A stretch of DNA of 64,000 bases from Corallococcus exiguus (GTDB taxonomy: Bacteria > Myxococcota > Myxococcia > Myxococcales > Myxococcaceae): the NCBI RefSeq assembly GCF_012985275.1, contig NZ_JABEKY010000003.1; one strand, given 5' to 3'. Shown here piece by piece: positions 6,045 to 55,271 of this stretch. Both the position numbers and the translations under genes were made by a program. The notes under the pieces were generated by a model. The model searched no databases and was not told where the DNA came from. It saw nothing but the letters and a program-made list of their open reading frames with translations. Every line of letters starts with the position of its first letter. Within the stretch, counting starts at the first letter, position 1.

Positions 6045-6067
6045 AGTCCATCTGAAACTCAGTTGAG

Positions 6068-6099
6068 GAGCGGTCGGACCCACACGGGTCCGGCCGCTC
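6068..6099 (+). terminator. stem-loop GAGCGGTCGGACCC-ACAC-GGGTCCGGCCGCTC after the Kelch lipoprotein gene
   Basis: A 14-bp stem with one G-T wobble lies 24 bp after the stop. There is no U-tract, which is common in high-GC genomes. Confidence 0.5.
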
Positions 6100-6131
6100 C
6101 GGGCATTGCGGCGCCGCGCGATTGAGCGAGG

Positions 6132-6962: not shown

Positions 6963-6977
6963 CGCGCCTTACGCCCC

Positions 6978-7898
6978 ATGCCCCCGCGCAAGCTCCAGCG
7001 ACACCTGGTCTGGCTCGAGTCCTTCACCGCCGCCGTGGAGGCCGGCAGCATTGACGCCGCCGCGGAGCACCTGGGCGTCGCACGCTCCGTCGTGAGCGAG
7101 CACATCCGCGCGCTGGAGGAAGCGCTCGCGGATGGCGCCGCCCTGCTGGAGCGGGGGCCGGGCCGGCGCCTGCAACTGTCCGCGCGTGGAGAGCGCCTCT
7201 ACGCGGGCACCCAGACGCCGCTGCACCAGCTGGACGTGAAGCGGCTGATGGACCTGGCCCGAGTGGAGCCCACCCTGCGCCTGGGCCTCAACCCCACGCT
7301 GTCCATGTCGCTGCTGGGCGGCATCGCGCAGGATGCCGCCGCCGCCGACCTCAAGCTGGTGGTGGGCTTCGGCGGCTCGCACGAACTCATGCGGCAGGTG
7401 CAGACGCGGCAGCAGGACCTGGCGCTCGACTTCACCCCCCTGCCCCCACACGAGGGCGTGGACACCGAGTCCCTGCTGCGCATGTCCTTCGTCGTCATCG
7501 CGGGTCCCGACTCCGCGCTCGCCCGGGAGCACCCCTCCCGCCGCTCGCTGGACGTGAAGGACCTCCAGGGCCAGCGCTTCGTGGACTGGCTTCGAGACGA
7601 CCCCTACGGCGGCGCCAACAGCGCGCGCTTCGCCGCGCACGGCGTGTCCGTCACCGAGGTCGGCCGCGTGGAGAGCTTCCTCCACCTCTACGAGCTGCTG
7701 CGCGCCTACAAGGCCTGCACCATCGCCCCGGACGTGCGCCCCACCCAGCCGTTCCCTCCCGACCTCCACGTCTGGCCCCTGCGCGAACAGGAGCCCCAGG
7801 TCGTGGAGGTGGTGGCCCTGTGGCCCTCTGGCGGCCTCAGCCCCGCCGTCCAGGCCATCCTCGACGGGGTGCGTCGCCGCCTGAACAAACGACGATAA
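6978..7898 (+). CDS. LysR-family transcriptional regulator
   Basis: An N-terminal wHTH (FTAAVEAGSIDAAAEHLGVARSVVSEHIRALEEAL) is followed by a LysR substrate-binding-domain-like region. The protein is 306 aa. Confidence 0.85.
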   Translation: MPPRKLQRHLVWLESFTAAVEAGSIDAAAEHLGVARSVVSEHIRALEEALADGAALLERGPGRRLQLSARGERLYAGTQTPLHQLDVKRLMDLARVEPTLRLGLNPTLSMSLLGGIAQDAAAADLKLVVGFGGSHELMRQVQTRQQDLALDFTPLPPHEGVDTESLLRMSFVVIAGPDSALAREHPSRRSLDVKDLQGQRFVDWLRDDPYGGANSARFAAHGVSVTEVGRVESFLHLYELLRAYKACTIAPDVRPTQPFPPDLHVWPLREQEPQVVEVVALWPSGGLSPAVQAILDGVRRRLNKRR

Positions 7899-7991
7899 TC
7901 CGACGAAGACGTCGAATTCTGCCGGATTTCCGTCTTGCAGTGAGGTGCGTATTCTTCAGGAGTCCTGCATCTCCTGAAGGAGCCGCTCGCG

Positions 7992-9587
7992 ATGACGCCC
8001 ACGGAACGGACCATTGCCCGCCTTCCCGCCCACCTGCGCCGCTACGTGGTGGGCCAGGACTACGCGGCGTACACGCCCAGGGATCAGGCGGTGTGGCGGC
8101 ACATCCTGGGGCAGTTGCGCGAGCACCTGAGCGACAAGGCGCACCCCGTCTACCTGGAGGGCCTGGAGGCCACGGGCATTGGCGCGGAGGCCATCCCCAG
8201 CCTGGACGAGATGAACGAGAAGCTGTCCCAGCTGGGCTGGGCCTGCGTGGCGGTGCGCGGCTTCATCCCGCCGGCCGTCTTCACGGAGCTGCAGGCGCTG
8301 GGCGTGCTGGCCATCGCGGCGGACATCCGCACGCACGAGCACATCCAGTACACGCCCGCGCCGGACATCGTCCATGAGAGCGCGGGCCACGCGCCCATCA
8401 TCGCGAACGCGCGGTACGCCCAATACCTCAAGGCCGTGGGGCTGGTGGGCTTCAAGGCCATCGCCAGCGTGGAGGACCAGGCCGTCTTCGAGGCCATCCG
8501 CAACCTCTCCGTGGTGAAGGAGGACCCCACCGCGACGGAGGAGGAGATTTCCCACGCCCAGGCCCGCCTGGAGGCCGCCAACGCCAGCCACCGCTACATC
8601 AGCGAGAGCACCCGCGCGAGCCGCCTGTACTGGTGGACCGCGGAGTATGGGCTGATTGGCGACCTGAAGCACCCGCGCATCTACGGCGCGGGCCTGCTGT
8701 CCAGCATTGGCGAGGCCCGGCACTGCCTGACGTCCGCCGTGCACAAGCTGTCCCTGGGCGTGGCGTGCGCGGACACGGACTACGACATCACCCGCATGCA
8801 GCCGCAGCTCTTCGTGGCGCGCGACTTCGAGCACCTCTTCGAGGTCCTGGCCGAGTTCGAGTCCACGCTCGCGTGGAAGCGCGGCGGAGACCTGGGCCTC
8901 AACGAGGCGCTGCGCGCGCGCACGGTCAACCACCTGGTGCTCGCGGACGGCCGCGAGGTGACGGGCAAGGTGGTGGAGCTGCTGCCCGCCGCGAAGGACG
9001 TGGCCCCGGGCCTGTCCACCGCGCTGGCCCGGCTGGAGGGCCCCATCCTCACGTCCATGAACGGGCACGCCGTGGACATGCCGTTCAGCGGCGCGGCGCT
9101 GGTCGCCTTTGGCCAGGGCACCCTGCCGGAGCGCGGGAGCTTCACGCTCACGCTCGACAGCGGGCTGGTGCTGGAGGGCTTCGCGGTGGGCGGCGGAGAA
9201 GTGATTGCCCTGCGCGGCACGCTGGCCGGCCAGGAGCTGACGCTGCCGTCCATGGCGCGCCTGTACCTGACGGAGCGGCTGCCGTCCGTGGCGGGCGGCC
9301 CCGCCGACCCGGGCACGTGGGACGAGTGGTTCGGGGAGATGGACGCCTTCACCGCGGGCGACGGCGAGGCCCAGGCGCGCGAGCGCAAGGCGCAGGCCCT
9401 GCCCCCGTCGCTGGCCGCCCTCTACACGGAGGTGCGCCGCATCCGCGAGACGGGGCAGCTGGCCGCCGAGCGGCTGGAGCAGATCGCCCGCGCGTCCACG
9501 GACTTCCCCACCGACTGGCTCCTGCGCGCCGAGGTCGCGGAGCTGCGCGGCGAGGTGCCCGCGCGGCGCGAGGCGGCGCAGGCGTAG
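7992..9587 (+). CDS. phhA: phenylalanine-4-hydroxylase-like aromatic amino acid hydroxylase with a C-terminal extension of about 230 aa
   Basis: The iron-binding motif of pterin-dependent hydroxylases is present as PDIVHESAGHAPII, the PDxxHExxGHxP pattern. Upstream context (EHIQYTPAPD) and downstream context (RLYWWTAEYGLIGD) also fit. At 531 aa it is much longer than typical bacterial PhhA of about 270-300 aa. Confidence 0.8.
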   Translation: MTPTERTIARLPAHLRRYVVGQDYAAYTPRDQAVWRHILGQLREHLSDKAHPVYLEGLEATGIGAEAIPSLDEMNEKLSQLGWACVAVRGFIPPAVFTELQALGVLAIAADIRTHEHIQYTPAPDIVHESAGHAPIIANARYAQYLKAVGLVGFKAIASVEDQAVFEAIRNLSVVKEDPTATEEEISHAQARLEAANASHRYISESTRASRLYWWTAEYGLIGDLKHPRIYGAGLLSSIGEARHCLTSAVHKLSLGVACADTDYDITRMQPQLFVARDFEHLFEVLAEFESTLAWKRGGDLGLNEALRARTVNHLVLADGREVTGKVVELLPAAKDVAPGLSTALARLEGPILTSMNGHAVDMPFSGAALVAFGQGTLPERGSFTLTLDSGLVLEGFAVGGGEVIALRGTLAGQELTLPSMARLYLTERLPSVAGGPADPGTWDEWFGEMDAFTAGDGEAQARERKAQALPPSLAALYTEVRRIRETGQLAAERLEQIARASTDFPTDWLLRAEVAELRGEVPARREAAQA

Positions 9588-41153: not shown

Positions 41154-43004
41154 CTATTCGAATTCACTAACGGCTCTCACATCAGCAACGGAGAAAATAC
41201 GAGCACGAATCGAAGAGTCATCACCAGCTTCACGTTCCATCCCTTTGACACCCTCTTCACTGAGCAGTTCAAAGCACACCGGGAAGCTATCCCCCTGCGG
41301 AGGCGTAGCCCAGGTGAGCCGGCCATAAACGCGGTCGCTCACGACAGCACGGCCCGACAGCACCGTGTTAGCAGGCATGCCTCCCCATCCACCTAGGAGA
41401 TGAATTTCAATGGGTCCATCTCCCACGGAAACTGTTCTAGGGCGGCCTTTGACAAAAACAGCAGGGAGCCTGCGTCCTATCTCAACTTCACGTTTCGCCA
41501 TGGCCTTCACTGACCCTGCAGGGCACGGCTCAGGAGGCGGAGCCGGACGCACCTGCGGACCAGGACAACCCATGAGCGCTGAGCAAGCCGCCACCGTGCC
41601 GACAGCACGGGCCATGACGCTCATGCCCTTCTTCGCGGGCTTCGAGGGGAGCTGAAGGGGCTGCGTCTCTTTGGGCTGCATCGTCACGGTGGCTGAAACC
41701 TCCTGGAGCGTCGCAGGGAGAGCGACGGCCGCAGCGGTGGCCTCCGGCCCGGTAGGAGCTGCGGCGCGGTCAGCTTGAGTCGACTTGCCAGAGGGCGCTA
41801 CTTCCTGACGGGTGGGGACAGGCCGCGCGACGCGCGACGTCCCGAGGCCCCACGCTGCCCCCGTCAGGACGAGCACCACTGCGAGCGCCACCCAGGCAAG
41901 GAAGGCCCCACGCTTCTCGGGCGACACACGCACGGTCGTCGCGGGAGGTGGCATCTCGCTCGCCGCAGCATCCGCGTCCACCGCTGGCATCTGTTTCCGG
42001 GGAATGCGTTTGCCTCGACGAGGGCGGTGCCGGGGTTGGTGCCGCCACTGCTCGAAGCTGTCGATGTCCTCCCCCTCTGTCGTCGCGGAGTCCTCGGCAT
42101 ACGCGTCGCAGAGCGGCACGTCCCACGTCGCGTCCGCGCCGCGCAGCGCCTGCTCCAGCGACTCGCAGAGAGTCTGGGCGCTGGGCGTGCGCGCCTCGGG
42201 GGTCTTCTCCAGCAACCGCAGGCACACGTCGCTCAGCGCCCGAGGCACCCGCTCGTTCTCCTCGTGCGGCGGCGTGGGCGCGCTGGAGAGAATCGCCTCC
42301 GTCAAGCTGGCACCGTCCTCGCCATCGAAGGGGAAGCGCCCCGTCAGCAGCCGGTAGGAGACGAGGCCCAGCGCCCACAAGTCGTCCGCCGGCCCCGCTG
42401 TGTAACGAGCGTCCGGCGCCTCGCGGTGGGCCCGCAGGAAGCGCCACGCCTCCGGGGAGCGGTAGTCCACCGTCCCGGGTGGGAGGATGTCCGCCGTCAG
42501 CTCGCGCGCGCCCGTGTAGTCGCCGATGCCGAAGTCCACCAGCTTGGCCAGGCCGTCCGAGGCGCGCACCATGACGTTGGCCTCCTTCACGTCCCGGTGC
42601 ACCACCCCGTCCCCATGGGCAGCCGCGAGCGCCCGCGCCACGCCCAGCAGCGCGCGCGCCGCCTGCCTCGCCGTGGGGTTCTCCGCGTCGGCCCAGGCGT
42701 CCAGCTGACGCCCTTCCACGTACTCCATGACGATGACGATGAATTGCGGCTGGGGCACCGGCCAGTAGCCATGGCCCAGAATCCGCACCACGTTGGGGTG
42801 ATGCAGGCGAGTGAGGATGGAGACTTCGCGCTCCGCCCGCTCCCCCACGCGAGGCACGTGCAGCAGCTTCAGGGCGAAGCGCTGACCCTCGCAATGCGCG
42901 AGATACACCGTGCCGAAGCCGCCCTGCCCCAGCTGGCGATCCACCGTGTAGCCCAGCACCTGGGCCCCAGGAGACAGCACGGCCGGAGGTGGCCCCCGCA
43001 TCAT
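41154..43004 (-). CDS. Ser/Thr protein kinase (Hanks-type) with a TM segment and a C-terminal extracytoplasmic domain
   Basis: The motifs are LGQGGFGTVY, ALKLL, HRDVKEANVMV, DFGI and SPE. The TM is AFLAWVALAVVLVLTGAAWGL. A C-terminal domain of about 200 aa is unassigned. Confidence 0.85.
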   Translation of the reverse strand: MMRGPPPAVLSPGAQVLGYTVDRQLGQGGFGTVYLAHCEGQRFALKLLHVPRVGERAEREVSILTRLHHPNVVRILGHGYWPVPQPQFIVIVMEYVEGRQLDAWADAENPTARQAARALLGVARALAAAHGDGVVHRDVKEANVMVRASDGLAKLVDFGIGDYTGARELTADILPPGTVDYRSPEAWRFLRAHREAPDARYTAGPADDLWALGLVSYRLLTGRFPFDGEDGASLTEAILSSAPTPPHEENERVPRALSDVCLRLLEKTPEARTPSAQTLCESLEQALRGADATWDVPLCDAYAEDSATTEGEDIDSFEQWRHQPRHRPRRGKRIPRKQMPAVDADAAASEMPPPATTVRVSPEKRGAFLAWVALAVVLVLTGAAWGLGTSRVARPVPTRQEVAPSGKSTQADRAAAPTGPEATAAAVALPATLQEVSATVTMQPKETQPLQLPSKPAKKGMSVMARAVGTVAACSALMGCPGPQVRPAPPPEPCPAGSVKAMAKREVEIGRRLPAVFVKGRPRTVSVGDGPIEIHLLGGWGGMPANTVLSGRAVVSDRVYGRLTWATPPQGDSFPVCFELLSEEGVKGMEREAGDDSSIRARIFSVADVRAVSEFE

Positions 43005-43317
43005 GGCGACCTTCTTTCGGGCTCCCAGGCCTCTCGCATGCGGCGTCCTCCCAGCGGGGCGCGGACCCTACCAGAAGCGTGAGAAGCCCGGGAATCCCTC
43101 CCTCTGGCTGCCCCCTCCAGAAAGGACTCATGGAGTCTATCCAACTCCACAGGACCTCCAGCATTCACCCTTGGCCGACCTTTGTAGGGCACGAAGCCCA
43201 AGCCCAAGGAAGAGGACGCTCCAGAGTTGCGGCGTCTCCTCCACCTCGCGCGCAAGCTGGACGCGGAGGACCTCGCGGCCCTCCTCCACGTCGCCTCGGC
43301 CCTGGCGCGCTGAAGCC

Positions 43318-44487
43318 CTACTCCCGCTTCAAGCCCTCCAGTTCGTGGGACTCCAACCCCTCGGGGAAGAAGCCCTCCTCACCGAACTCCACCTCGTCGC
43401 GAAGGACGCTGCCCTCCGCCAGCACCTGGGCCCACTCCGCTGCGGCTTCCTGCCGGCCGTAGCCCGGGTGGCGCCTCGCCAGGGCGACGCGCATCGCATC
43501 ACGCATGTCCGCCGCCGTGGCGAATCGCTGCTCGGGTTTGGCGCGCAGCGCGACATGCAGCATCGCCTTCACGTCCGGGGAGAGTGAGTCCACGGCCTCC
43601 TCGACGTCCTCCGGCCCGAAGCTGGCCAGCAGCACCTGCATTTGCGTCAGCGGCAGGGAGGGGATGATTTCCGGCTGGAGGTGGACCATCCCCTTGAGCG
43701 GGCCCGGCACGTCCTCCACGTCGAAGAGGTGCTTTCCGGTGAAGAGTTCCACCAGCAGCACGCCCAGGCCGAAGACGTCGGAACGCGGCGTCAATGGTTT
43801 ACGTGTCAGGTACTCCGGCGAGGCGTAGGCCACGTCTCCACGCACGAGGCTGGCGGGTGACTCCTCGCGCCCCACCACCAGCGAGTACGCCGCGCCGAAG
43901 TTCGTCAGCTTCACCTCGCCTTGCGTCCCTACGTAGACATGCCGGGGGTTGACGTCGCGGTGGATGACGCCCAGCGACTTGCCGTCCACGTCCGTCAGCG
44001 TGTGCGCGTGGTGCAAGGCCTCCGCGATTTCCGCGCCGACATAGAGGGCGAAGGACTCGGAGACGGGCCGGCCACGCGCCACGCCCGCACTCACCAGCGT
44101 CTCCAGCGAGGGACCGTCCACGTACTCCATGACGGCGTGCAGGGCGCCTTTGTGCACCTTGCGGTGGAACACCGTGGCGATGGCCGGGTGGCGCAGACGG
44201 AAGGCCAGCTGAATCTCCTCCCCCAGCCGCGTGCGCTGCATGAAGGTGGAGGGGTTCGCCAGCCGCCGCACGAAGCAGTAACCGGGCAGCTTGTTGCCGC
44301 GCTCCGTGAAGCGCTGGGCCATCATCAGCACCTCGCCCGTCTCCATCCGCACCAGTTCGCGGACGGCCTCGTAGCGGATGCCGTCGATGGTGAAGAGGTG
44401 CAGCGGGCGCTCAGGCGTCGGCGGGAGCTGCCTGCGGCGCGCGGAGGCTTCGGTGCGCGCCAGGTTATCGGTTGTCGTGTCGGGCAT
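43318..44487 (-). CDS. Ser/Thr kinase-like protein, possibly a pseudokinase
   Basis: The motifs HRDVNPRHV, NFG and SPEY are present, but there is no recognisable GxGxxG loop. The protein is 389 aa. Confidence 0.7.
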   Translation of the reverse strand: MPDTTTDNLARTEASARRRQLPPTPERPLHLFTIDGIRYEAVRELVRMETGEVLMMAQRFTERGNKLPGYCFVRRLANPSTFMQRTRLGEEIQLAFRLRHPAIATVFHRKVHKGALHAVMEYVDGPSLETLVSAGVARGRPVSESFALYVGAEIAEALHHAHTLTDVDGKSLGVIHRDVNPRHVYVGTQGEVKLTNFGAAYSLVVGREESPASLVRGDVAYASPEYLTRKPLTPRSDVFGLGVLLVELFTGKHLFDVEDVPGPLKGMVHLQPEIIPSLPLTQMQVLLASFGPEDVEEAVDSLSPDVKAMLHVALRAKPEQRFATAADMRDAMRVALARRHPGYGRQEAAAEWAQVLAEGSVLRDEVEFGEEGFFPEGLESHELEGLKRE

Positions 44488-44489
44488 GG

Positions 44490-44535
44490 CTCCTCGGGAG
44501 GCGGGAGAAGTGGCGCGGCGGCGCCTCCCGAGGAG
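44490..44535. promoter_or_regulatory. perfect 11-bp inverted repeat CTCCTCGGGAG-N24-CTCCCGAGGAG abutting the start codon of the kinase-like gene
   Basis: Read from the sequence. It lies in the 5' leader and RBS region of the minus-strand gene, so it could sequester the RBS or act as a terminator for upstream transcription. Confidence 0.35.
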
Positions 44536-44914
44536 TTTGGGTCCAATTGACTTTTAAAGTCCATAATCTTGGACTCTAAAGGGCAATCACCTCACCTGGG
44601 CGAGGGCGAAGCCTGCCCCGGCGCCGAGCACCACCGCCATCACCACAACCAGGACAGGGACAGAGCGCGGCTGTTGGCGTAGCACCTCGTTCTCCGCCTG
44701 GTGTAACGGACCGGGGTAGTGGATCGCAGGCGGGTCACCCAAGCAGTTCGTAGCGGGGTCGGCCAAGCGGATCGCCCCCGGGTCGGCCAAGCGGACCTTG
44801 AGTCGGAGCAGTCGGGACGGCGGTCCGTTCCCCCGGAAGACAGTTGGAAGAAACACGGCTGGGAGGTGGAGTGAGCGCCTACCCGGCCAGGCATCCCGTG
44901 CATCTTCGCGAGTC

Positions 44915-46814: not shown

Positions 46815-48138
46815 CCATCCGCTTCCGGTTTAGCCGCCGCTCCCGAGGGAAGCCTCTCGCTTCCGGCGTTCGCGCTCTCGGCGCTGCTGGCGTGAACGCG
46901 CCGTCACCTCCGCGATGAGCAGAATGCGCTCCTCCAACTGCTCCAGCGTCACGCCCCGGCTCATCATCGCATGAGACAGTAGCAACGGGGCGCAGCGAGC
47001 CAGTGCCAGTACCAGCGCGAGCCGCCCCGTCGCCTGCTGCGAGTCCGGCTCGCCTGCCTTCTGCCGCAGCGACAGTTCCAGCAGGCGCGAGAGGGCCAGG
47101 GCAATCACCTTGGCGTACACCAGCGAGAGCACCGCGCCAGGCCGGGTGGCGCGCAGCGCCGACATCCCCACGCCGGATTTGAGGGCCTTGAAGAGCAGCT
47201 CCACTCTCCAGCGCAACCGGTAGGCCTCGGCCACCTCGTGTGCCGTCAGCACCTCGCGGCCCACCGTCGTCAGGTACCAGCGCCGCTCGCCCTGCGGCCC
47301 TTCCACGGCCACCACGCGCGCGCAGGCCGTGCGCCCGTGCTTCTCCAACCGCACGTCCACGTCGATGACGCCGCCCTCCTCCTTGAGGACACCTTGCAGG
47401 AGTGCGTCAGTCAGGCGCATGCCACGCGCCCGGACGCGCTCGCCCTTGCCCACGTGCACCCGCAGCACCTTCGGGTCATGCTGGGCCTTCAGCCGCACCA
47501 GGAAGTGGGCCCCGGCCTCGATGGCGTCGAGGTAGCGGCCCGTGTCCGTGTACCCCAGGTCCATGAAGGTGAGCGTGCCGGGCGCCAGCGCCTCCTCGGG
47601 CAGGGCGCGCGTGTCCTGGGTGCGCTGGGACGTCACGTCATCGGCCACCGGTAACTCGTCGCGCAGCGACACCAGTGCGTGCCACTTGAAGGCGGCCGGC
47701 CGTGCCTCGCTGGTGGACGGGGCCCAGTCCGCTGCCAGCCGCCGCAGCAGTTGGCACGTGGAGTCGGCCACCTGCACGTCCGTGAACTCGTCCAGCAGTG
47801 CCCCCAACTCGTTGAAGGGCTTGTCCTCGCCGACGGCCTCTCGTACGGCACGGATGGCCCGGCTCGCCACCTCGCGCATCAACTGCCCGAAGGCGTCGCT
47901 GAAACGCTCGAAGAAGGCGCTGGGCGACAGCTTCTGCCCGGTGAGCGCGCGGCCTCCAGAATGTCCTCGGCCGACACCAGCGCGCGCAATCCCTCAGCCA
48001 CCTTCGTCCTCGGCGTGCTCTTCTTCATATCGACAAAGTGTTCCTGGCACCCCGTTCCCGAGAACCTGTCTGCTCGGCTGCCCTTATGTCTTTGATTCTG
48101 CTCGGCTTTTCCCCATCACGCGAAGCGGACGCGGATGG
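46815..48138. mobile_element. IS4-family insertion sequence, about 1.3 kb, with a frameshifted transposase. Boundaries are approximate.
   Basis: A DDE transposase ORF spans 46830-47882 on the minus strand. Its N-terminal 48 codons (MKKSTPRTKVAEGLRALVSAEDILEAAR...) lie in another frame at 47885-48028. A short CCATCCGC inverted match at 46815 and 48131 is a tentative end marker; no TSD was identified. Confidence 0.6.
46830..47882 (-). CDS. IS4-family DDE transposase (main ORF; N-terminus in a different frame up to 48028)
   Basis: Sequences typical of the IS4/IS231 transposase family are ...FMDLGYTDTGRYLDAIEAGAHFLVRLK...GERRWYLTTV...AEAYRLRWRVELLFKALKSG. There is an arginine-rich C-terminus. 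Confidence 0.7.
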   Translation of the reverse strand: MMREVASRAIRAVREAVGEDKPFNELGALLDEFTDVQVADSTCQLLRRLAADWAPSTSEARPAAFKWHALVSLRDELPVADDVTSQRTQDTRALPEEALAPGTLTFMDLGYTDTGRYLDAIEAGAHFLVRLKAQHDPKVLRVHVGKGERVRARGMRLTDALLQGVLKEEGGVIDVDVRLEKHGRTACARVVAVEGPQGERRWYLTTVGREVLTAHEVAEAYRLRWRVELLFKALKSGVGMSALRATRPGAVLSLVYAKVIALALSRLLELSLRQKAGEPDSQQATGRLALVLALARCAPLLLSHAMMSRGVTLEQLEERILLIAEVTARSRQQRRERERRKREASLGSGG

Positions 48139-48434: not shown

Positions 48435-49523
48435 CTACCCGTTGCGCTTCGCGAAGTCGTCCATGAATGAGACCAGCGTCTTCACGTGATCCACGGTCAC
48501 CGCGTTGTAGAGGGACACGCGGATGCCGCCCGTGATGCGGTGGCCCTTCATACCCACCATGCCGGCCTTGGCGCCTTCGGCCACGAAAGCCTCTTCCAGC
48601 TTTTCGTCCGGCAGGCGGAACACCACGTTCATGTACGAGCGCGACGCCTTCTCCACCGGGGCCCGGTAGAAGCCCGCGTTGCGGTCGATGGCCGTGTACA
48701 GCAGTTCGCCCTTCTCGCGGTTCCAGGCCTCCACCTGCTTCAGACCGCCCACACCCTTGATCCACGCGAGCACGTTGCGGCAGAGGTAGATGGAGAAGGT
48801 GGGCGGCGTGTTGTAGAGCGAGTTGTTCTCCGCGTACGTCGTGTAGCGGAAGATCTTCGGGATGTCCTTGCGGCCCTTCGCCATGAAGGATTTCTCCACC
48901 AGCACCAGGACGATGCCCGACGGCCCGATGTTCTTCTGGGCTCCCGCGTAGATGAGCGCGAAGCGGCTCACGTCGATGGGCTTCCACAGGATGTCGGAGC
49001 TCATGTCCGCCACCAGGGGCACCTGCCCCACTTCCGGGAAGGTGTGCCATTGCGTCCCGAAGAGCGTGTTGTTGCTCGTCATGTGGACGTAGGCGGCCTT
49101 CGGATCCAACTGGAGCTCGGCCTGGGTGGGGACCCGCGTGAAGCGCTTGTCCTTGTCCACCGTGTTCGCGGCGATGCGCGGCGTGCCGTAGTAGCGCGTC
49201 TCGTCCACCGCCTTCTCGCTCCAGCCTCCCGTCACCACGTAGTCCGCGGAGCCGCCCTGGGGCATGAAGTTCATGGGCACCTGCGCGAACTGCTGCGAGG
49301 CGCCGCCCTGGAGGAAGAGGATCTCGTGGGTGTCCGGAACGGCCAGCAGCTCCTTCACGAGGGCGAGGGTCTCGTTGTGGACGGCCTCGAACGCCTTGCC
49401 CCGGTGGCTGTGCTCGATGATCGACATCCCCGTGCCCTGGAAGTCGAGCAGCTCGTCCCGCGCCCGCTCCAGCGCTGCCGTGGGGAGACCGGCCGGGCCG
49501 GGATTGAAGTTGATGACGCGCAT
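48435..49523 (-). CDS. serC: phosphoserine aminotransferase
   Basis: [14 protein letters not shown]...HRGKAF...[10 protein letters not shown]...[13 protein letters not shown]...NTPPTF...[16 protein letters not shown] aligns along the full length of E. coli SerC by eye. The track ORF begins 6 codons earlier. Confidence 0.9.
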
Positions 49524-49650
49524 GGCAGTGTCCTCTGGCAAGTGAACCGCTCCGGCATTCTCGCCGGTGGAACTCCGGGGGTCACGAGCAACGTGGGCTC
49601 AAGCGGACGGGGGCCTTCGTCCGCCCGGTGGGGGTGGTAGCGTCCCAGGC

Positions 49651-50556
49651 GTGTCCCCTGCGCCCACTCCTTTGGCCTCCGCCTTTCTCGCGGCTTCTGG
49701 CCACGCGCCTGCTTCGCTTGCGGAGCCCACGCGCTTGGAGGAGCTGCTCCGCGCGTCGCTCGAGCGCGCCCGGTCGCGCTGGCCCGGGCTGGAGCTGGAG
49801 GCGCTCGCCTTCGTGGTGTTCGTCGCTGAGCGATTGACGTCTCCGAAGGGGCTGCTGGAGGCGCTCGAAGGGGCCTCGCCTGCCTTCTCGGAGTTGTACC
49901 TGGCCTTCGGGTGCCTGCGGCACGACCGCGCCGCGCTCCAGTTCTTCGAGGACGGCTACCTCCGCGATGTCGGCGCGTTCGTGTCCGGCGTGGACCGCTC
50001 GCCCGCTTTCGTCGCGGAGGTGCGGCAGGTGCTCCGGGAGAAGCTGTTCACGGCTGCCGCTGGCTGTGAGCCGAAGATTTCGGAGTTCACCGGCGGCGGC
50101 GCGCTGGGCGGATGGGTGCGGGTGGCGGCGCTGCGCATCGCGCTCAACCTCAAGCGCTCCGAGACCCGGGCCGACACCGCCGCGCAGGACTCCGTTGAGT
50201 CCGCGTTCGGCGAGCAGCTGGGGCCAGAGCTCGAACACCTGCGCTCGCGGTACCGCGAGGCCTTCACGGAGGCCGTGCGCACGGCGCTGGGTGAGCTGTC
50301 CGACCGGGACCGCACGCTGATGCGCCTGTACCACGTGGAGTCGCTGTCGCTGGACGCCATCGCGGCGCTCTACCGCGTCCACATGTCCACGGTGTCGCGG
50401 TGGCTCAGCCGCGCGCGGGAGCAGGTGGCGGAGGCCACGACGCGGCGGCTCTGCGAACGCCTGGGGGTGGGCGCGTCCTCGGTGGACAGCATCGCGGCGC
50501 TGGTCGTGAGCCAGGTGGACCTCAGCCTGACGCGGCTGCTCGGTCCGGGGGGCTGA
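49651..50556 (+). CDS. ECF-type RNA polymerase sigma-70 family factor
   Basis: A sigma region 2-like segment (ELYLAFGCL...FFEDGYLRDV) and region 4 (DRTLMRLYHVESLSLDAIAALYRVHMSTVSRWLSRAREQV) are present. The start is uncertain: GTG 49651 was chosen, and the track ORF starts at 49567. Confidence 0.65.
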   Translation: MSPAPTPLASAFLAASGHAPASLAEPTRLEELLRASLERARSRWPGLELEALAFVVFVAERLTSPKGLLEALEGASPAFSELYLAFGCLRHDRAALQFFEDGYLRDVGAFVSGVDRSPAFVAEVRQVLREKLFTAAAGCEPKISEFTGGGALGGWVRVAALRIALNLKRSETRADTAAQDSVESAFGEQLGPELEHLRSRYREAFTEAVRTALGELSDRDRTLMRLYHVESLSLDAIAALYRVHMSTVSRWLSRAREQVAEATTRRLCERLGVGASSVDSIAALVVSQVDLSLTRLLGPGG

Positions 50557-50633
50557 ACTTTCGCTGCAAGGGATTTCCCGGCCGGTGTCAGGGCGTCGAA
50601 AGGCCCCTTCCGGGCCTCACCGAGGAAAGCCCC

Positions 50634-51596
50634 ATGCGCGTCTCTTCCTGGCTGTCCGTCGTCACCCTCGCCGCCACCGTCTCCGCCTGCGAGCCGTTCC
50701 CCGACGATGCCCCCTCCATCCCCACCGAGGTGCAGTGGCCCGGCGAGGCCTTCTTTCCAGAGGGCATCGCGGCCTCGAAGGACGGCACGCTCTACGCGGG
50801 CAGCCTGGGCACCGGCGCCATCGCGCGCGCCAAGCCGGGCTCGCTGGGGGCCGAGGTCTTCGTCCCGGGCCGGGCCTCATTCGGCGTCTACGGGCTCGAG
50901 GTGGATGAGGCCCACGACACGCTCTGGGCCTGCACCTACGACGACCTGCTGCTGCCCGCGCAGGCCTCGTACCTGAACGGGTATGCGCTCTCCTCGGGTG
51001 CCCTGAAGGCCAGCCATGCCATGCCCAGCCAGGTCAGCTTCTGCAACGACGTCGCCGTCGATGCCGCGGGCAACGTGTACGTGACGGACTCGTTCGGGAA
51101 CGCGGTCTTCCGGCTGGCCGTGGGTGGGACGGCGCTCGACACGTGGTCCTCGGATGCCGCGTACGAGCCCTCCGAGCCGGGCCTCATCACGCTCAACGGC
51201 ATCGCCTACGACGGGGCGAACCGGCTCTACGTCGTGAAGAGCGACACGGGCGCGCTGTTCTCCATCGATATCCAGCCGGATGGCAGCGCGGCGGCGCCCG
51301 TGAACATCCCGGTGACGCCGGCGCTGGAGACGCCGGACGGGGTCGAGTGGGTGGATTCGGGCCGGCTGTTCGTCGTGGAGAACACGGTGGGGCGGGCTTC
51401 GCTGGTGACGCTGGGTGAAGGCGCTGGCGCGAAGGAGGTGCTCGCCAACGGCTTCGTGGAGCCGACCGCCGCCGCGATCACGAAGGACGGCGCGTGGGTG
51501 CTGGAGTCGCAGATGGGGTTCTTCTTCGGCACGCCGGGGACCCCGGCCCTGCCCTTCCGCGCGTACCGGGTCGCCGTCCCCCCTCTTCTGCCCTGA
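50634..51596 (+). CDS. lipoprotein with an SMP-30/gluconolactonase/strictosidine-synthase-like beta-propeller
   Basis: The lipobox is MRVSSWLSVVTLAATVSAC. Repeated blades include DGTLYAGSLGTG, NVYVTDSFGNAVFRL, NRLYVVKSDTGALFSI and DGAWVLESQMG. The track ORF 50400-51596 starts further upstream in a Gly/Arg-rich stretch that looks non-coding. Confidence 0.6.
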   Translation: MRVSSWLSVVTLAATVSACEPFPDDAPSIPTEVQWPGEAFFPEGIAASKDGTLYAGSLGTGAIARAKPGSLGAEVFVPGRASFGVYGLEVDEAHDTLWACTYDDLLLPAQASYLNGYALSSGALKASHAMPSQVSFCNDVAVDAAGNVYVTDSFGNAVFRLAVGGTALDTWSSDAAYEPSEPGLITLNGIAYDGANRLYVVKSDTGALFSIDIQPDGSAAAPVNIPVTPALETPDGVEWVDSGRLFVVENTVGRASLVTLGEGAGAKEVLANGFVEPTAAAITKDGAWVLESQMGFFFGTPGTPALPFRAYRVAVPPLLP

Positions 51597-51626
51597 GCGC
51601 GAACAATCCTAGAGTCGCGTCCCACC

Positions 51627-54359
51627 ATGTCGGGATGTCCCTCCGAGGAAACGATTCTCGCCTTCGTGGAGGACCGCCTGCCGCATGAGCAGCGCGCCCT
51701 CGCGGAGGCGCACCTGTCCCGCTGCGATTCCTGCGGGTCGCTGCTCGCGGCCGTCGCGGCGACGTGGCACGCGGAGGGCCGGTTCGTGGAGGCGGCTCCG
51801 CCCCGCTCGTTCGCTCCTGGGGAGCGGGTGGGGCCGTACGTCATCGTCGCCCATGCGGGCAGTGGCGCGATGGGGGACGTGTACCGGGCTCGCGATGGGC
51901 GGCTGGGACGGGACGTGGCCTTGAAGGTGCTCCCGCTCCGGTTCGCGCAGGACGCGGAGCGCCTGGCCCGTTTCCGACAGGAGGCCCGCGCGGCGGGCGC
52001 GCTGTCCCATCCCCACCTGCTCACGCTGTTCGACGTGGGGACCCACGAGGACGTGCCGTACCTCGTCACCGAGTGGCTGGAGGGCGTCACCCTGCGGGCT
52101 CGGCTGATGCGTGGGCCGCTGCCACCGGAGCAGGCGCTGCGGCTGGGCATCCAGTTGTCCCAGGGGCTCGCGGCCGCGCACGCGCGTGGCGTCATCCACC
52201 GCGACCTCAAGCCCGCGAACATCTTCCTGTGCTCGAACGGCAGCGCGCGGGTCCTCGACTTCGGGCTGGCCCGGCTCACCGAGCGCGTCGAGCACACCGG
52301 GGACGCCTCGCTCACCCAGAGCGGCGCGGTGGTGGGCACCGCCGGGTACATGGCTCCGGAGCAGATCCGCGGCCAGGGCGTGGATGCTCGCGCGGATGTG
52401 TTCTCGCTCGGCGCGGTGCTCTACGAGGCCGTGAGCGGCCGTGCTCCCTTTGGCGGTGACAGCCCGGTGGAGCGGATGAGCGCCGCGCTCCGCGATGCGC
52501 CTCCCGTGCTGCCGGGAGAGATGGGGACGGTGATTGCTCGCTGTCTGGCGAAGGATCCAGGCGAACGGTTCCAGTCCGCGCAGGACCTGGCCTTCGCCCT
52601 GGAGTCCATCGCGGCTCGTGGTGCGCCCCTGGCCTTGCGGCGCGGAGTGTTCCCACGCCCTGCCCTGTGGGTGGCCGCGGCGGCCGTGCTGCTGTCTGTC
52701 GTGGGTGGCTTCCTGGCGTTCGGACACAGGCCGGCGACTGCGGCGGTGCCAACGGCGCAGTCCTCACGCCCGACGTACCGCCCCGTCACGTTCCGCCGGG
52801 GCCACGTGCTCAACGCCCGGTTCTCCGCGGACGGACACACGTTGCTCTATGGCGCGGCGTGGGAGGGAGGACCCGCGGAGCTCTACAGCGCGCGCACGGA
52901 GCGTCCGCTGTCACAACCGCTGGGGCAGCACGCGGATGTGCTCGCCGCGTCCTCGAAGGGGGAGCTGGCGGTGCTGCTCGAGCCCCGGTTCTTCGACGCC
53001 GAGCATGGCAGCGGGACGCTCGGCTTGATGCCGCTCGCGGGCGGCGCGCCCCGGGCCGTGCTCGATGGCGTGCTGGAGGCGGACTGGGGACGTGCGGATG
53101 GACCGCTCGCGGTGGTGCGCCGCGTGGGCGAGAACTTCCGGCTGGAGCAGCCCCCCGGCACGGTGCGCTTCGAATCCCAGGGATGGATCAGCCACGCACG
53201 CGTCTCCCCCGACGGAGCGCGGATCGCCTTCCTGTTCCATGCACATCCCAAGGACGACCGGGGCGGGGTCTGGGTGCTGGAGAAGGACGGTCCGCCCCGC
53301 GAGCTTTCGTCGGACTGGGCGAGCATCCGGGGCCTGGCGTGGTCTCCCGATGGAAGCGAGGTGTGGTTCACCGCCTCGCGTACAGGCGCGGACTCCGAGC
53401 TGTTCGCGGTCGACCTGCGCGGCACGACGCGGCCGGTGGATCGGATCGCCGGGCGGATGGTGCTGCATGACATCTCCCAGGACGGCTCCATCCTGGTGGA
53501 TCACCCGGTGATCCGCACGGGGCTGGCGTTCGGGCACGCGGGCACGGAGCGGGACCTGACGTGGTCGGACTCGTCGTTCATGACGGACATGTCCCGCGAT
53601 GGCCGGACCTTCCTCTTCACCGAGGGCGCGGAGGTGGAGGGCCCCACCTACGGCGCCTATCTGCGCACCTCCGATGGCGCACCACCGATCCGCCTGGGCG
53701 ACGGCATCCCCATGGCGCTGTCTCCGGACGGCAAGCAGGTGCTGCTGGTGCGCTACGGCGAACAGATGGAGTTCCTGCTGCTGCCCACGGGCGCGGGCGA
53801 GCCTCGGTCGCTGTCGCTCGCTCCTGTCACCACGGTGCTCACGGCGCGCTGGTTCCCGGATGGGAAGCGGTTGCTCCTTCGCGCGCACGAAGAGGGACGT
53901 CCTGCCCGGCTCTGGGTCTTCGAACCCGGCTCCGGAGCCCCCAGGCCCATCACAGAGGAAGGCACGGGCTTCCACACGGTCATCTCACCCGATGGCCTCC
54001 GCCTCGCGACCGTGGACGCGGAGGGAAGCCTCCGCCTGTTCTCCCAGACGGGTGAGGCGCAAGGCACCGTCCCCGGCCGGTTCACGAATCAATGGGTGGC
54101 GGGCTGGGACGCGAGCGGAACGGCGCTCTATCTGCGAAGCGTCTCGCTCCCGGTGCGCGTCTCCAGGGTCGACGTGAAGACTGGCGCGAGCACGCCACAC
54201 CTGACCCTTCCGGCGGGGGGCGTCATGCCGGGCCTCATCTCCGTGATGACGCTGGCGATCTCCGAGGACGGAAAGTTCTACACATACAGTTACAACGAAG
54301 CGCTTTCCCGGCTGTATCTGGTGAAAGGATTGGTGGGAGCCCGGTCTTCCCCGCAATAA
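51627..54359 (+). CDS. zf-HC2 anti-sigma-like N-terminus + Ser/Thr protein kinase + TM helix + periplasmic PD40/TolB-like beta-propeller
   Basis: The zinc-finger is CPSEETILAFVEDRLPHEQRALAEAHLSRCDSCGSL, the H-x3-C-x2-C type. The kinase motifs are GSGAMGDVY, ALKVL, HRDLKPANIFL, DFGLA and APE. The TM is ALWVAAAAVLLSVVGGFLAF. Seven or more PD40-like repeats are present (FSADGHTLLY, VSPDGARIAF, WSPDGSEVWF, MSRDGRTFLF, LSPDGKQVLL, WFPDGKRLLL, ISPDGLRLAT). Confidence 0.85.
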   Translation: MSGCPSEETILAFVEDRLPHEQRALAEAHLSRCDSCGSLLAAVAATWHAEGRFVEAAPPRSFAPGERVGPYVIVAHAGSGAMGDVYRARDGRLGRDVALKVLPLRFAQDAERLARFRQEARAAGALSHPHLLTLFDVGTHEDVPYLVTEWLEGVTLRARLMRGPLPPEQALRLGIQLSQGLAAAHARGVIHRDLKPANIFLCSNGSARVLDFGLARLTERVEHTGDASLTQSGAVVGTAGYMAPEQIRGQGVDARADVFSLGAVLYEAVSGRAPFGGDSPVERMSAALRDAPPVLPGEMGTVIARCLAKDPGERFQSAQDLAFALESIAARGAPLALRRGVFPRPALWVAAAAVLLSVVGGFLAFGHRPATAAVPTAQSSRPTYRPVTFRRGHVLNARFSADGHTLLYGAAWEGGPAELYSARTERPLSQPLGQHADVLAASSKGELAVLLEPRFFDAEHGSGTLGLMPLAGGAPRAVLDGVLEADWGRADGPLAVVRRVGENFRLEQPPGTVRFESQGWISHARVSPDGARIAFLFHAHPKDDRGGVWVLEKDGPPRELSSDWASIRGLAWSPDGSEVWFTASRTGADSELFAVDLRGTTRPVDRIAGRMVLHDISQDGSILVDHPVIRTGLAFGHAGTERDLTWSDSSFMTDMSRDGRTFLFTEGAEVEGPTYGAYLRTSDGAPPIRLGDGIPMALSPDGKQVLLVRYGEQMEFLLLPTGAGEPRSLSLAPVTTVLTARWFPDGKRLLLRAHEEGRPARLWVFEPGSGAPRPITEEGTGFHTVISPDGLRLATVDAEGSLRLFSQTGEAQGTVPGRFTNQWVAGWDASGTALYLRSVSLPVRVSRVDVKTGASTPHLTLPAGGVMPGLISVMTLAISEDGKFYTYSYNEALSRLYLVKGLVGARSSPQ

Positions 54360-54401
54360 CGGTGCTAGACTTCCATTGCGGTCCAAACCCAACCGGAGGT
54401 C

Positions 54402-54614
54402 GTGATGAAGCTCAAGATGGCGCTGGCGGCGATGGCGGCATGTCTGGGATTCGCGGCGGGATTCACCAACACCCAGGCCGAGGCGGCAGGTCCCTGTCCG
54501 TACTGTATCGACATGCGCGCCCGGTGCATGCGCAACGCGACGACTCCGGCGCAGGAAGAGGCCTGCTACGTCCAGTTCGACAAGTGCCGCATTGACTGGT
54601 GCGAGCCGCGCTGA
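54402..54614 (+). CDS. small secreted Cys-rich peptide (70-aa precursor, 6 Cys)
   Basis: The signal peptide is MMKLKMALAAMAACLGFAAGFTNTQAEA. The mature part is AGPCPYCIDMRARCMRNATTPAQEEACYVQFDKCRIDWCEPR. A strong hairpin follows. Confidence 0.5.
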   Translation: MMKLKMALAAMAACLGFAAGFTNTQAEAAGPCPYCIDMRARCMRNATTPAQEEACYVQFDKCRIDWCEPR

Positions 54615-54624
54615 ACGCATCCGA

Positions 54625-54668
54625 GAACCGCGCCGCTCCGGACCGTGCCGAGCCGGGCCGCGCGGTTC
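54625..54668. terminator. bidirectional hairpin GAACCGCGC-N26-GCGCGGTTC between the convergent peptide gene and sodB
   Basis: A perfect 9-bp inverted repeat with an internal CCGG..CCGG sub-stem was read from the sequence. Confidence 0.55.
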
Positions 54669-54686
54669 CCGTCACTTCACTTCACA

Positions 54687-55271
<585 letters not shown>

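Follow-up and report, generated by a model that had tools for sequence, protein, structure and literature searches.

A myxobacterial ECF sigma factor gene paired with a receptor kinase that carries a predicted zinc-binding anti-sigma domain

In a 64-kb window of Corallococcus exiguus DNA (64,000 nucleotides, the whole stretch that we analysed), three genes on the + strand (49651-54359) encode an ECF-type sigma factor, a propeller lipoprotein, and a receptor kinase that begins with a predicted zinc-binding anti-sigma (ZAS) domain. The arrangement of such a sigma factor beside a ZAS-kinase is widespread in myxobacteria, and the cassette merges two known forms of sigma control, phosphorylation of the ECF43 type and binding by a ZAS anti-sigma factor. 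We think it rather probable that it works as a self-contained transmembrane unit, in which the ZAS domain tethers the sigma factor to its own kinase and phosphorylation releases or activates it; within this scheme we infer the binding of sigma factor and zinc, as well as the ligand, the phospho-acceptor, and whichever direction the effect takes. The initial annotation had called three co-directional genes here, and they are found on the + strand as described. Their starts at 49651, 50634, and 51627 are supported because GC3, which is 0.86-0.93 within the three genes, drops to 0.57-0.63 in the upstream ORF extensions. No separate anti-sigma gene is present, and the only sigma-adjacent ZAS motif in the window lies within the kinase. 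Neither outcome that the initial annotation had named as refuting it was encountered, and its overall interpretation is supported. A sodB gene is located just downstream of the cassette, a neighbour that is not kept at other loci.

The kinase gene (51627-54359, +) encodes 910 aa in the order ZAS domain, linker, Hanks kinase, transmembrane (TM) helix, and PD40 propellers. Residues 1-50 (51627..51776, +) constitute a CHCC domain with putative zinc ligands C4, H29, C33, and C36, which are the only invariant columns in an alignment of 18 kinase N-termini and which supply the ZAS signature, H-x3-C-x2-C with a Cys or His about 25 residues ahead. Pfam zf-HC2 scores 17.6 bits on the whole protein from the window against a cut-off of 22.2, equals that cut-off (22.2) on the isolated N-terminus, and matches 16 of the 18 orthologous or paralogous N-termini (best 2.6e-7). 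A profile of the 18 sequences retrieved only anti-sigma domains from the PDB: DdvA (1.1e-6), RslA (1.9e-6), RsiW (0.008), and ChrR (0.12). An AF2 model places helices at residues 7-14, 20-32, and 34-50 (pLDDT 65-76), with boundaries that match those of DdvA, whose NMR structure has alpha1 at 5-14, alpha2 at 19-29, and alpha3 at 33-46, with C6, H28, C32, and C35 as its CHCC centre, and which binds both sigma2 and sigma4 of its partner DdvS (PMC11506125). Because the profile matches sigma-binding ZAS domains, and because sigma factor and ZAS-kinase show a near-obligate, two-way co-occurrence, the N-terminal module is, on the evidence of its sequence, a real anti-sigma domain, as was proposed when it was first noted as an anti-sigma-type zf-HC2 finger.

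This co-occurrence is apparent from either partner. A Hanks kinase is adjacent to the sigma gene, or within a few kb of it, at 26 of 28 sigma-family loci, a trait also of ECF43, and the two exceptions, L018 and L023, are without a kinase out to 8 kb; in nearly all of the sigma-linked kinases, C-x(24-27)-H-x3-C-x2-C precedes the kinase domain, with PD40-type and TPR-type C-termini alike. Starting from the kinases, a sigma gene of the TIGR03001 family adjoins six of the seven ZAS-kinases examined. Three orthologues (P0016, P0022, and P0025) retain the three-gene order, and three distant ZAS-kinases picked by their N-terminus alone (P0323, P0294, and P0220) adjoin sigma-family genes (5.5e-87, 6e-68, and 1.9e-86, respectively); for P0260 (locus L035), no sigma gene lies within 5 kb. 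PD40-kinase homologues outside the Myxococcota (n = 95) begin directly at the G-loop, and none of three ZAS-less PD40 kinases examined has a TIGR03001-type sigma beside it: two are without any sigma nearby, and the third has a classical ECF nearby with its own separate zf-HC2 anti-sigma. The three-gene order, whose conservation the initial annotation had set as a check, is found again, amid unrelated flanking genes, in eight Corallococcus species, Aggregicoccus, a Polyangiaceae MAG, Pendulispora, and a JGI contig. Sigma factor and ZAS-kinase also co-diversify: distance matrices are correlated for sigma versus anti-sigma domain (ASD) and for sigma versus kinase (Mantel r 0.86-0.95, p 2e-4), in part through shared phylogeny.

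The sigma factor (301 aa; 49651..50556, +) belongs to the TIGR03001 'Myxococcales family 1' (Sig-70_gmx1, 235 bits against a cut-off of 154.6, model positions 1-243 of 244). As in the ECF superfamily, sigma2 and sigma4 are its only sigma domains; TIGR02937 scores above its cut-off, in fold the protein matches true ECF sigmas best, and the nearest relatives are AlgU and RpoE. A Pfam search reported Sigma70_r4_2 and r4 but did not detect Sigma70_r2. Region 2 is divergent, yet profile and fold comparisons still recover it as a Sigma2-like domain (49891..50175, +), and the Sigma4 helix-turn-helix domain (50218..50451, +; Sigma70_r4_2, 4.7e-10) has conserved S246, T247, R250, and W251. An N-terminal helical extension (residues 1-80; 49651..49890, +), with AF2 helices at 8-72 and pLDDT up to 94, is conserved in the alignment and includes an invariant W44-P45; a 229-aa orthologue from Pendulispora is without it. 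The conserved C-terminal extension (residues 268-301; 50452..50553, +), modelled by AF2 as a helix at 275-297, is rich in conserved Ser (S280, S287, and S292), and the S292 position is Ser or Thr in 99% of 83 sigma sequences. These three residues and S117 are candidate phospho-acceptors simply as conserved serines.

In the ECF43 pairs EcfP/PknT of Vibrio parahaemolyticus and EcfK/PknS of Xanthomonas citri, a neighbouring Hanks kinase phosphorylates the sigma factor directly (PMC8999054, PMC13147305), and surveys find that kinase-linked ECF groups are typically without anti-sigma factors (PMC7826278). Like these pairs, the cassette joins a sigma gene to a Hanks kinase that spans the membrane once and has a large sensor outside the cytoplasm, does so without a separate anti-sigma gene, and shows a reduced acidic patch in region 2.2. 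Across the sigma family (consensus A-F-[AV]-D-E-V-R-Q), the first acidic residue of DxxDxxQE is gone (Ala in 71%) and RQ replaces QE; the protein in the window reads DRSP-AFVAEVRQ, with Ala at both DxxD positions (A119 and A122). These altered acidic positions would fit a weakened intrinsic core binding of the sigma factor. Control could then be purely ECF43-like, the sigma factor being unable to bind core RNAP until phosphate supplies the missing charge, with the ZAS domain as a docking site that does not sequester. EcfP and EcfK provide the precedent (PMC8999054, PMC13147305), and PknS likewise has a helical N-terminus, of 81 residues. We nevertheless regard this as unlikely. D122-E123 is retained in most family members, and the family motif of region 2.2 contains no Ser or Thr and has no counterpart of the conserved ECF43-type Thr, whereas in ECF43 the uncharged QTTA, with its conserved phospho-acceptor Thr, replaces DAED. 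The N-terminal module of the cassette kinase has homologues that hold sigmas sequestered at nanomolar affinity (PMC11506125), and the ZAS profile does not retrieve PknS at E values up to 10. Further differences from ECF43 are the TIGR03001 ancestry and terminal extensions of the cassette sigma factor and, by comparison with PknS, the recognisable CHCC ZAS domain of its kinase.

The ZAS domain is joined by a flexible linker (residues 51-66; 51777..51824, +; pLDDT ~55 in the AF2 model), variable in length and sequence in the alignment, to a Hanks-type Ser/Thr kinase domain (51825..52616, +; Pfam Pkinase at residues 72-318, E 2e-45). Its catalytic motifs are complete (GSGAMGDV at 78, VALK at 97, HRDLKPAN at 191, DFG at 211, and APE at 243), the G-loop, VAIK Lys, alphaC Glu, HRDxKxxN, DFG, and APE elements of Hanks kinases are all represented, and PknB is the best solved relative (1e-58). 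The sole segment with Kyte-Doolittle hydropathy above 1.6 is a single TM helix at residues 346-366 (52662..52724, +). The remainder (residues 367-910 plus the stop codon; 52725..54359, +) is a periplasmic propeller region of the PD40/Tricorn_N type and the putative sensor, matched by Pfam PD40 and, on homologues, by precomputed Tricorn_N and Tricorn_2nd hits. The complete kinase and TM helix claimed in the initial annotation are thereby borne out; of its 'TolB-like PD40 propeller' the PD40 repeats stand, and 'TolB-like' is too loose a label. TIGR02800 gives 31.2 bits against a cut-off of 343, which led us to reject a TolB orthologue.

The cassette kinase was compared with the class I ZAS factors of the DdvA-DdvS, RslA-SigL, RsiW-SigW, and ChrR-RpoE pairs. 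It shares with DdvA of Myxococcus xanthus, the top profile match, the absence of a fourth ZAS helix and the presence of a single TM helix and large periplasmic sensor downstream. Unlike DdvA and the other class I factors, it has a complete Hanks kinase inserted between anti-sigma domain and membrane, its partner sigma comes from a different family, and proteolytic release is not implied. A classical anti-sigma mechanism would have site-1/site-2 cleavage free the sigma factor, as for DdvA, RsiW, and RseA, and would leave the kinase to act on other substrates or to tune stability. The single-pass topology and large periplasmic sensor would suit it, and DdvA, the closest solved relative, does use RseP-dependent intramembrane proteolysis (PMC11506125). 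We consider it very unlikely here, since between the ASD and the membrane stands a folded kinase of 280 residues that has kept its catalytic motifs and is strictly conserved in the PD40, TPR, and short variants, among which the TPR and 445-470-aa forms may have no periplasmic sensor. Also very unlikely is a redox or zinc switch in which the CHCC centre would do the sensing, on the model of RsrA and RslA, with oxidants or zinc loss freeing the sigma factor and the kinase and propellers serving as a second, independent input. The four putative ligands are all invariant, some ZAS domains are known to be labile to oxidants, DdvA binds DdvS less tightly once zinc is lost (PMC11506125), and sodB lies next to the cassette. 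However, zinc is purely structural in many ZAS domains, sodB is not a conserved neighbour at other loci, and the constant kinase fusion would be left unexplained.

Between the sigma and kinase genes lies the gene for a 320-aa lipoprotein (50634..51596, +; GC3 0.931) with a six-bladed beta-propeller of the NHL/SGL type. An SD-like GAGGAAAG precedes its ATG, and the signal peptide and lipobox V16-S17-A18-C19 (50634-50690, +), read from the sequence as MRVSSWLSVVTLAATVSAC, conform to [LVI][ASTVI][GAS]C. Pfam SGL matches at 27.3 bits (cut-off 26.3) with about half of the model covered, and NHL matches too. The earlier label 'SGL-like' is correct at the clan level only, because the closest solved relatives in the PDB are NHL-type six-bladed propellers, namely the 'Pizza' designs and the PknD sensor. 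At 50565..50590 (+), 44 nt ahead of the lipoprotein start codon, is a bipartite promoter-like motif, TGCAAG-N15-TGTCA (consensus TGCAAR-N15-GTGTC, with invariant TGCA ... GTGTC). The motif has no second occurrence in the 64-kb window (expected matches, 0.2), and each of the 17 PD40-type loci has a single copy in the corresponding place; these copies align without gaps. The 17 loci include some in which the lipoprotein is a non-homologous 430-aa protein, and at locus L005 the motif has remained with the lipoprotein gene after an insertion; TPR-type loci are without it. Because the motif is unique and occupies the same site in all 17 PD40-type loci, the lipoprotein-kinase pair is likely a regulated target, and the earlier suggestion that the lipoprotein may be the regulated target gains support from it. 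The usual ECF autoregulation is not evident, since the putative promoter motif follows the sigma gene rather than preceding it. That conserved motif beside the gene, the conserved recognition-helix residues of sigma4 and residues of region 2, the TIGR02937 score, and the fold matches also make it extremely improbable that the protein is no transcription factor but a sigma mimic, which in a PhyR-style partner switch would titrate the ZAS domain and so free a true sigma from another locus, despite the failure of Pfam to detect region 2 and the unusual extensions at both ends.

We return to the tethering of the sigma factor to its own kinase, which could proceed as follows. The sigma gene would be driven by its own upstream promoter, and its product captured by the three-helix, zinc-bound ZAS domain at the cytoplasmic N-terminus of the kinase, which would hold it at the membrane and off RNA polymerase. 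The captured sigma factor would then sit a flexible tether of 15-20 residues away from the catalytic centre of the kinase that holds it or of that kinase's dimer partner. A periplasmic cue, sensed by the PD40 propellers and possibly also by the secreted NHL-propeller lipoprotein, would activate the Hanks kinase, and phosphorylation of the sigma factor, of the kinase's own anti-sigma domain or linker, or of both would release or activate the sigma factor. Sigma-RNAP would transcribe the lipoprotein and kinase genes from TGCAAR-N15-GTGTC, and probably be active at other, unseen promoters too, so that the output protein would rise and the anti-sigma-kinase would be replenished as feedback. Against this scheme count the missing ECF43-type Thr in region 2.2, the ZAS-kinase P0260 and the sigma loci L018 and L023 that stand without a partner, and the absence of the motif from TPR-type loci.

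Anti-sigma factor and serine kinase are united in one protein in RsbW and SpoIIAB, which are soluble GHKL-type (HATPase_c) kinases without a zinc domain that phosphorylate anti-anti-sigma (STAS) proteins and serve group 3 sigmas; they share this duality with the cassette kinase and are not homologous to it. In Mycobacterium tuberculosis, PknB phosphorylates the ZAS-type anti-sigma factor, and SigH as well, in the RshA-SigH and RseA-SigE systems, freeing or modulating the ECF sigma (PMC8999054, PMC13147305). There, kinase and anti-sigma are separate and unlinked and the kinase has many substrates, whereas the cassette has one polypeptide beside its sigma. A further parallel, by description only, is ECF267 of the Casas-Pastor 2021 classification, a small, Proteobacteria-only group (the Myxococcales then being counted within) that falls in the clade of ECF02 (RpoE) and whose neighbourhood is reported to hold a protein kinase as well as an anti-sigma-like, TPR-containing protein, its regulator being stated as unclear (PMC7826278). 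The cassette sigma factor is likewise nearest AlgU and RpoE, and its paralogues pair with ZAS-kinase-TPR proteins; in ECF267, a 'FecR-like' anti-sigma and a kinase are described as two features and not as a fusion (PMC7826278).

We found no published description of a sigma factor paired with a fusion of anti-sigma domain and Hanks kinase. More tentatively than for the cassette itself, we suggest that ZAS-Hanks fusions may represent a general and so far undescribed form of ECF control in the Myxococcota, in which a single receptor polypeptide would both sequester and phosphorylate its cognate TIGR03001-type sigma and the ZAS domain would act as the docking module that determines specificity. 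If this is true, ZAS docking would explain how a particular sigma factor is addressed by just one Hanks kinase among the dozens to hundreds that a genome encodes, and the many paralogous pairs, whether their sensors are PD40, TPR, or short, would form an insulated family of circuits of one kinase and one sigma, with a separate promoter motif for each.

The 910-aa product of the kinase gene (51627–54359, + strand), which shares 99% identity with a Corallococcus sp. AB038B protein, contains a Pkinase domain (2e-45) in which all motifs are present, with the G-loop at residue 78, VALK at 97, HRDLKPAN at 191, DFG at 211 and APE at 243. This bears out the complete Hanks kinase of the initial annotation, and the closest solved relative of the domain is PknB. 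The transmembrane helix proposed there corresponds to one hydrophobic segment at residues 346–366. Its "TolB-like PD40" domain survives in part: the 545-residue C-terminal region carries PD40/Tricorn_N-type repeats, but it falls far under the TolB equivalog cut-off.

The N-terminus, originally read as a zf-HC2 anti-sigma-type zinc finger, was compared with known anti-sigma domains, and that reading holds. Pfam zf-HC2 scores 17.6 bits on the whole kinase against a threshold of 22.2, and the isolated N-terminus lies exactly at threshold; the same model matches 16 of 18 related-kinase N-termini (best 2.6e-7), and PF13490 is noted on some kinase homologues by automated annotation. In an alignment of the 18 N-termini, which share 20–75% identity, only C4, H29, C33 and C36 are invariant. 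Against all PDB sequences, a profile of these N-termini matched anti-sigma domains only: M. xanthus DdvA (1.1e-6), M. tuberculosis RslA (1.9e-6) and full-length DdvA, with weaker matches to RsiW (0.008) and ChrR (0.12). The AF2 model has helices at residues 7–14, 20–32 and 34–50, followed by a low-confidence linker (51–66) and the kinase domain. By NMR, the DdvA N-terminal domain, which binds sigma2 and sigma4 of its partner ECF, consists of α1 (5–14), α2 (19–29) and α3 (33–46) with no fourth helix, and C6, H28, C32 and C35 make up its CHCC zinc centre (PMC11506125). The predicted helix layout and the CHCC arrangement of the kinase N-terminus are essentially those of DdvA. By homology, then, the "zinc finger" is a genuine class I domain of the zinc-binding anti-sigma (ZAS) type (ASD; residues 1–50), carried on the same polypeptide as a Hanks kinase.

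The gene models on which this fusion rests are consistent with base composition. Three co-directional genes fill the interval exactly as first described, the sigma factor gene (49651–50556) and the lipoprotein gene (50634–51596) preceding the kinase gene with spacers of 77 nt (sigma/lipoprotein) and 30 nt (lipoprotein/kinase). GC at third codon positions is 0.86–0.93 within the three genes and falls to 0.57–0.63 in the longer upstream ORF extensions, which supports starts at 49651 (GTG), 50634 and 51627; an SD-like GAGGAAAG lies ahead of the lipoprotein gene. The neighbors bear no relation to the cassette: upstream lie genes for a serC-like aminotransferase and an IS4-type transposase, and downstream convergent sodB and genes for a flavin reductase and an AAA+ ATPase. 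The IS4-family DDE transposase gene (46830–47882, − strand) adjoins a region of lower G+C (0.62–0.65) between a DUF2019 gene and serC. Two more Hanks kinases, at 41157–43067 and 43321–44553 (− strand), lie 6–10 kb upstream; they have neither the ZAS motif nor an adjacent TIGR03001-family sigma gene.

Association of the fusion with one sigma family was examined in a genome scan using an 8-sequence sigma alignment of close relatives rather than a divergent 18-sequence one. The scan returned 28 loci, all from Myxococcota, and a Hanks kinase is adjacent or within a few kb in 26. Nearly all kinases at those 26 loci carry C-x(24-27)-H-x3-C-x2-C 55–90 residues before the kinase domain, and the motif is retained with either C-terminus, a transmembrane segment with PD40 propellers or long TPR arrays. 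Gene order is likewise conserved, since Aggregicoccus, Pendulispora and a JGI contig retain sigma, propeller and kinase within wholly different flanks. Of four distant ZAS-kinases picked by the N-terminus alone in a search covering 1.84 billion cluster representatives, three directly adjoin a sigma-family gene (P0323, 5.5e-87; P0294, 6e-68; P0220, 1.9e-86); the fourth, P0260, has none within 5 kb. Sigma distances correlate with those of the ASD (Mantel r = 0.93) and of the kinase domain (0.95) overall, and without the close Corallococcus set (0.86 and 0.85, respectively; p = 2e-4 throughout). These correlations, to which shared phylogeny contributes, are consistent with co-diversifying cognate pairs.

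Among the best 120 whole-kinase homologues, the ZAS domain is present in the 25 closest, and those with names are all Myxococcota; the other 95 begin at the G-loop, with names that include Acidobacteriota and Thermoanaerobaculia MAGs. Two of three ZAS-less kinases examined have no sigma nearby. The third, PD40 kinase P0108 (L033:5001-9165), is encoded ~400 nt upstream of the gene for a classical 179-aa ECF sigma (Sigma70_r2 and r4_2), and a zf-HC2 anti-sigma of 211 aa is encoded separately after that sigma. This arrangement may show the ancestral locus as it was before ZAS domain and kinase were fused. In 33 of the best 150 50%-identity cluster representatives, the ZAS motif is followed by the kinase G-loop. 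Named carriers belong to Myxococcaceae or Myxococcota, and the architectures comprise zf-HC2, Pkinase and PD40, zf-HC2, Pkinase and TPR, and short forms.

Several loci depart from the common plan. The L020 kinase (5441-8128, − strand), which lies beside a sigma paralogue, keeps the CHCC of the ZAS domain but reads HGDFRADN for HRDxKxxN and has no clear APE region; judged by these residues, it may be a pseudokinase retaining anti-sigma function only. At some MAG loci (L010:5555-12250; L016), two sigma paralogues share a 15-kb stretch with two ZAS-kinases, which points to tandem duplication of whole sigma-kinase pairs. At metagenomic locus L034 (417-4964), a sigma/ZAS-kinase-PD40 pair without an interposed lipoprotein follows a chaperone-usher (SCPU/PapD/Usher) cluster, a context that hints at a different regulated output.

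A candidate site of sigma action lies in the sigma-lipoprotein spacer. Its "translation" is conserved between very distant loci, and at the DNA level this reflects a bipartite motif, TGCAAR, 15 nt, (G)TGTC(A/G), often with a T-rich stretch on its 5′ side and with the SD and start codon 20–45 nt downstream. TGCARR-N15-TGTCR has a single match on either strand of the 64-kb window, at 50565–50590, where 0.2 would be expected. The motif occurs once, at the same position, in 17 of 17 loci whose kinase is of the PD40 type (L001–L009, L012, L024–L030), and the TGCA and GTGTC blocks are invariant in an ungapped alignment of ten diverged loci; it is absent from TPR-type loci. Matches in L018 and L023 were set aside as off-position, ~1.4 chance matches being expected over all loci. 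The motif stays with the downstream gene and not with the sigma gene: in C. interemptor (L005) it remains ahead of the lipoprotein gene after insertion of a DUF6178 gene behind sigma, and Kofleriaceae-type loci keep it though their downstream lipoprotein (~430 aa) is non-homologous. In form the motif is reminiscent of ECF promoters, whose −35 element is AAC-like and whose −10 element is CGT/GTC-like. We infer that it is the promoter from which sigma transcribes the lipoprotein and kinase genes as one unit. Simple scans of 49300–54800 for sigma-70 promoters and for intrinsic terminators gave no match.

The interposed lipoprotein (lipobox VSAC, Cys19) was initially called SGL-like and proposed as a possible co-sensor or regulated target. 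It is a six-bladed propeller of the NHL/SGL clan, with Pfam SGL barely over its cut-off and NHL-type solved relatives, the best being "Pizza" proteins and the M. tuberculosis PknD sensor propeller. The promoter-like motif favors the second half of the functional proposal, a regulated output, and the lipoprotein may alternatively act as a co-sensor with the PD40 domain. Insertions are tolerated by the cassette, as with the DUF6178 gene of C. interemptor (L005:8878-10566, − strand) and a PlsC-type acyltransferase between lipoprotein and kinase in C. carmarthensis (L002:10000-10743). The Kofleriaceae-type interposed gene (L012:8820-10121, L024:8733-10025, also L025 and L027) encodes a lipoprotein-like protein with a GFS[RH]GG motif; an alpha/beta hydrolase assignment drawn from GFSRGG was dropped, Pfam giving no match. 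A kinase-SGL propeller fusion, suggested by the JGI label "sugar lactone lactonase YvrE" on P0323, was rejected as a Rosetta-stone link because Pfam gives PD40 and DPPIV_N on that protein, not SGL.

The sigma factor (301 aa) matches TIGR03001, "RNA polymerase sigma-70 factor, Myxococcales family 1", at 235 bits (cut-off 154.6) and the ECF superfamily model at 57.4 bits (cut-off 42.9). Outside the ECF core are a conserved helical N-terminal extension of ~80 residues and a conserved C-terminal helix of ~35 residues. The Pendulispora orthologue (L029:3306-3995; 229 aa) does not have the N-terminal extension, which is therefore not essential to the cassette. No autoregulatory promoter is evident ahead of the sigma gene: TGCAAR-N15-GTGTC is absent there, and upstream regions are unconserved among Corallococcus species save for GGTGGTAGCGT (49633–49643), 8–18 nt 5′ of the GTG, which is kept in Corallococcus loci despite a differing upstream gene and could serve as the −10 element if the sigma transcript has a short leader or none.

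The best-supported reading of the sigma/ZAS-kinase unit is tethering followed by phosphorylation. The ZAS domain would capture sigma, as its homologues do, and hold it at the membrane, where a flexible linker would keep it close to the kinase; once activated by a periplasmic signal, the kinase would phosphorylate sigma and/or the ASD or linker and so free or activate sigma for transcription from the motif promoter. Each element has a precedent: sigmas are sequestered by DdvA-type ZAS domains (PMC11506125), neighboring Hanks kinases phosphorylate ECF43 sigmas, and PknB phosphorylates the ZAS anti-sigma RshA (PMC8999054, PMC13147305). It is possible, if rather unlikely, that the ZAS domain only docks sigma and that activation by phosphorylation is ECF43-like; among 83 sigma-family sequences, the region 2.2 motif has no ECF43-type Thr. 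Ser/Thr is conserved in these sequences at S117 (80%), within DRSP directly ahead of helix 2.2, at S280, S287 and S292 of the C-terminal extension (87–99%), and also in the 4.2 recognition helix and at T263. We consider proteolytic release of sigma from the ZAS protein improbable, and a redox switch at the ZAS centre very improbable. Pfam detects region 4 alone in sigma, not region 2. In the register that alignment to AlgU and the hydrophobic pattern of the helix support, the counterpart of the core-binding DxxDxxQE motif of region 2.2 is A119-F-V-A122-E-V-R125-Q126. Over the 83 sequences, Ala fills the first position in 71% and Asp the second in 71%, where the window sigma has Ala, and RQ stands in place of QE. 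This pattern leaves the acidic patch reduced, not abolished. That the protein is a sigma mimic seems to us very improbable.

To our knowledge, direct phosphorylation of ECF sigmas has been demonstrated in only a few cases, and we know of no account of how a Hanks kinase recognizes its sigma. The 2021 reclassification lists ECF43, ECF59-62, ECF217, ECF267 and ECF283 as kinase-linked, typically without anti-sigma factors. ECF267 is the exception: this small "Proteobacteria" group, placed in the RpoE clade, has both a kinase and an anti-sigma-like protein with TPR repeats in its neighborhood, and its regulation was called unclear (PMC7826278). Compared by description only, ECF267 could correspond to the present family. 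A 2026 paper notes that PknS, an ECF43 kinase, has a helical N-terminus of 81 residues and leaves it unexplained; the ZAS profile search did not detect this N-terminus. We found no description of an anti-sigma-kinase fusion in the literature searched, key subscription papers being outside its coverage and an earlier mention possible. What appears to be new is that a ZAS domain and a Hanks kinase are fused in a single protein that serves one sigma family.

Because the anti-sigma domain here sits inside the kinase, the statement that kinase-linked ECF groups typically lack anti-sigma factors would have to be qualified. Tethering and then phosphorylation is a concrete mechanism that is easy to test. 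With its sigma, regulator and predicted promoter, the cassette could be used directly as a reporter system and might provide an orthogonal part for synthetic circuits. As the fusion is common (33 of the best 150 cluster representatives), it may explain in part why kinases and ECF sigmas have expanded in parallel in myxobacteria.
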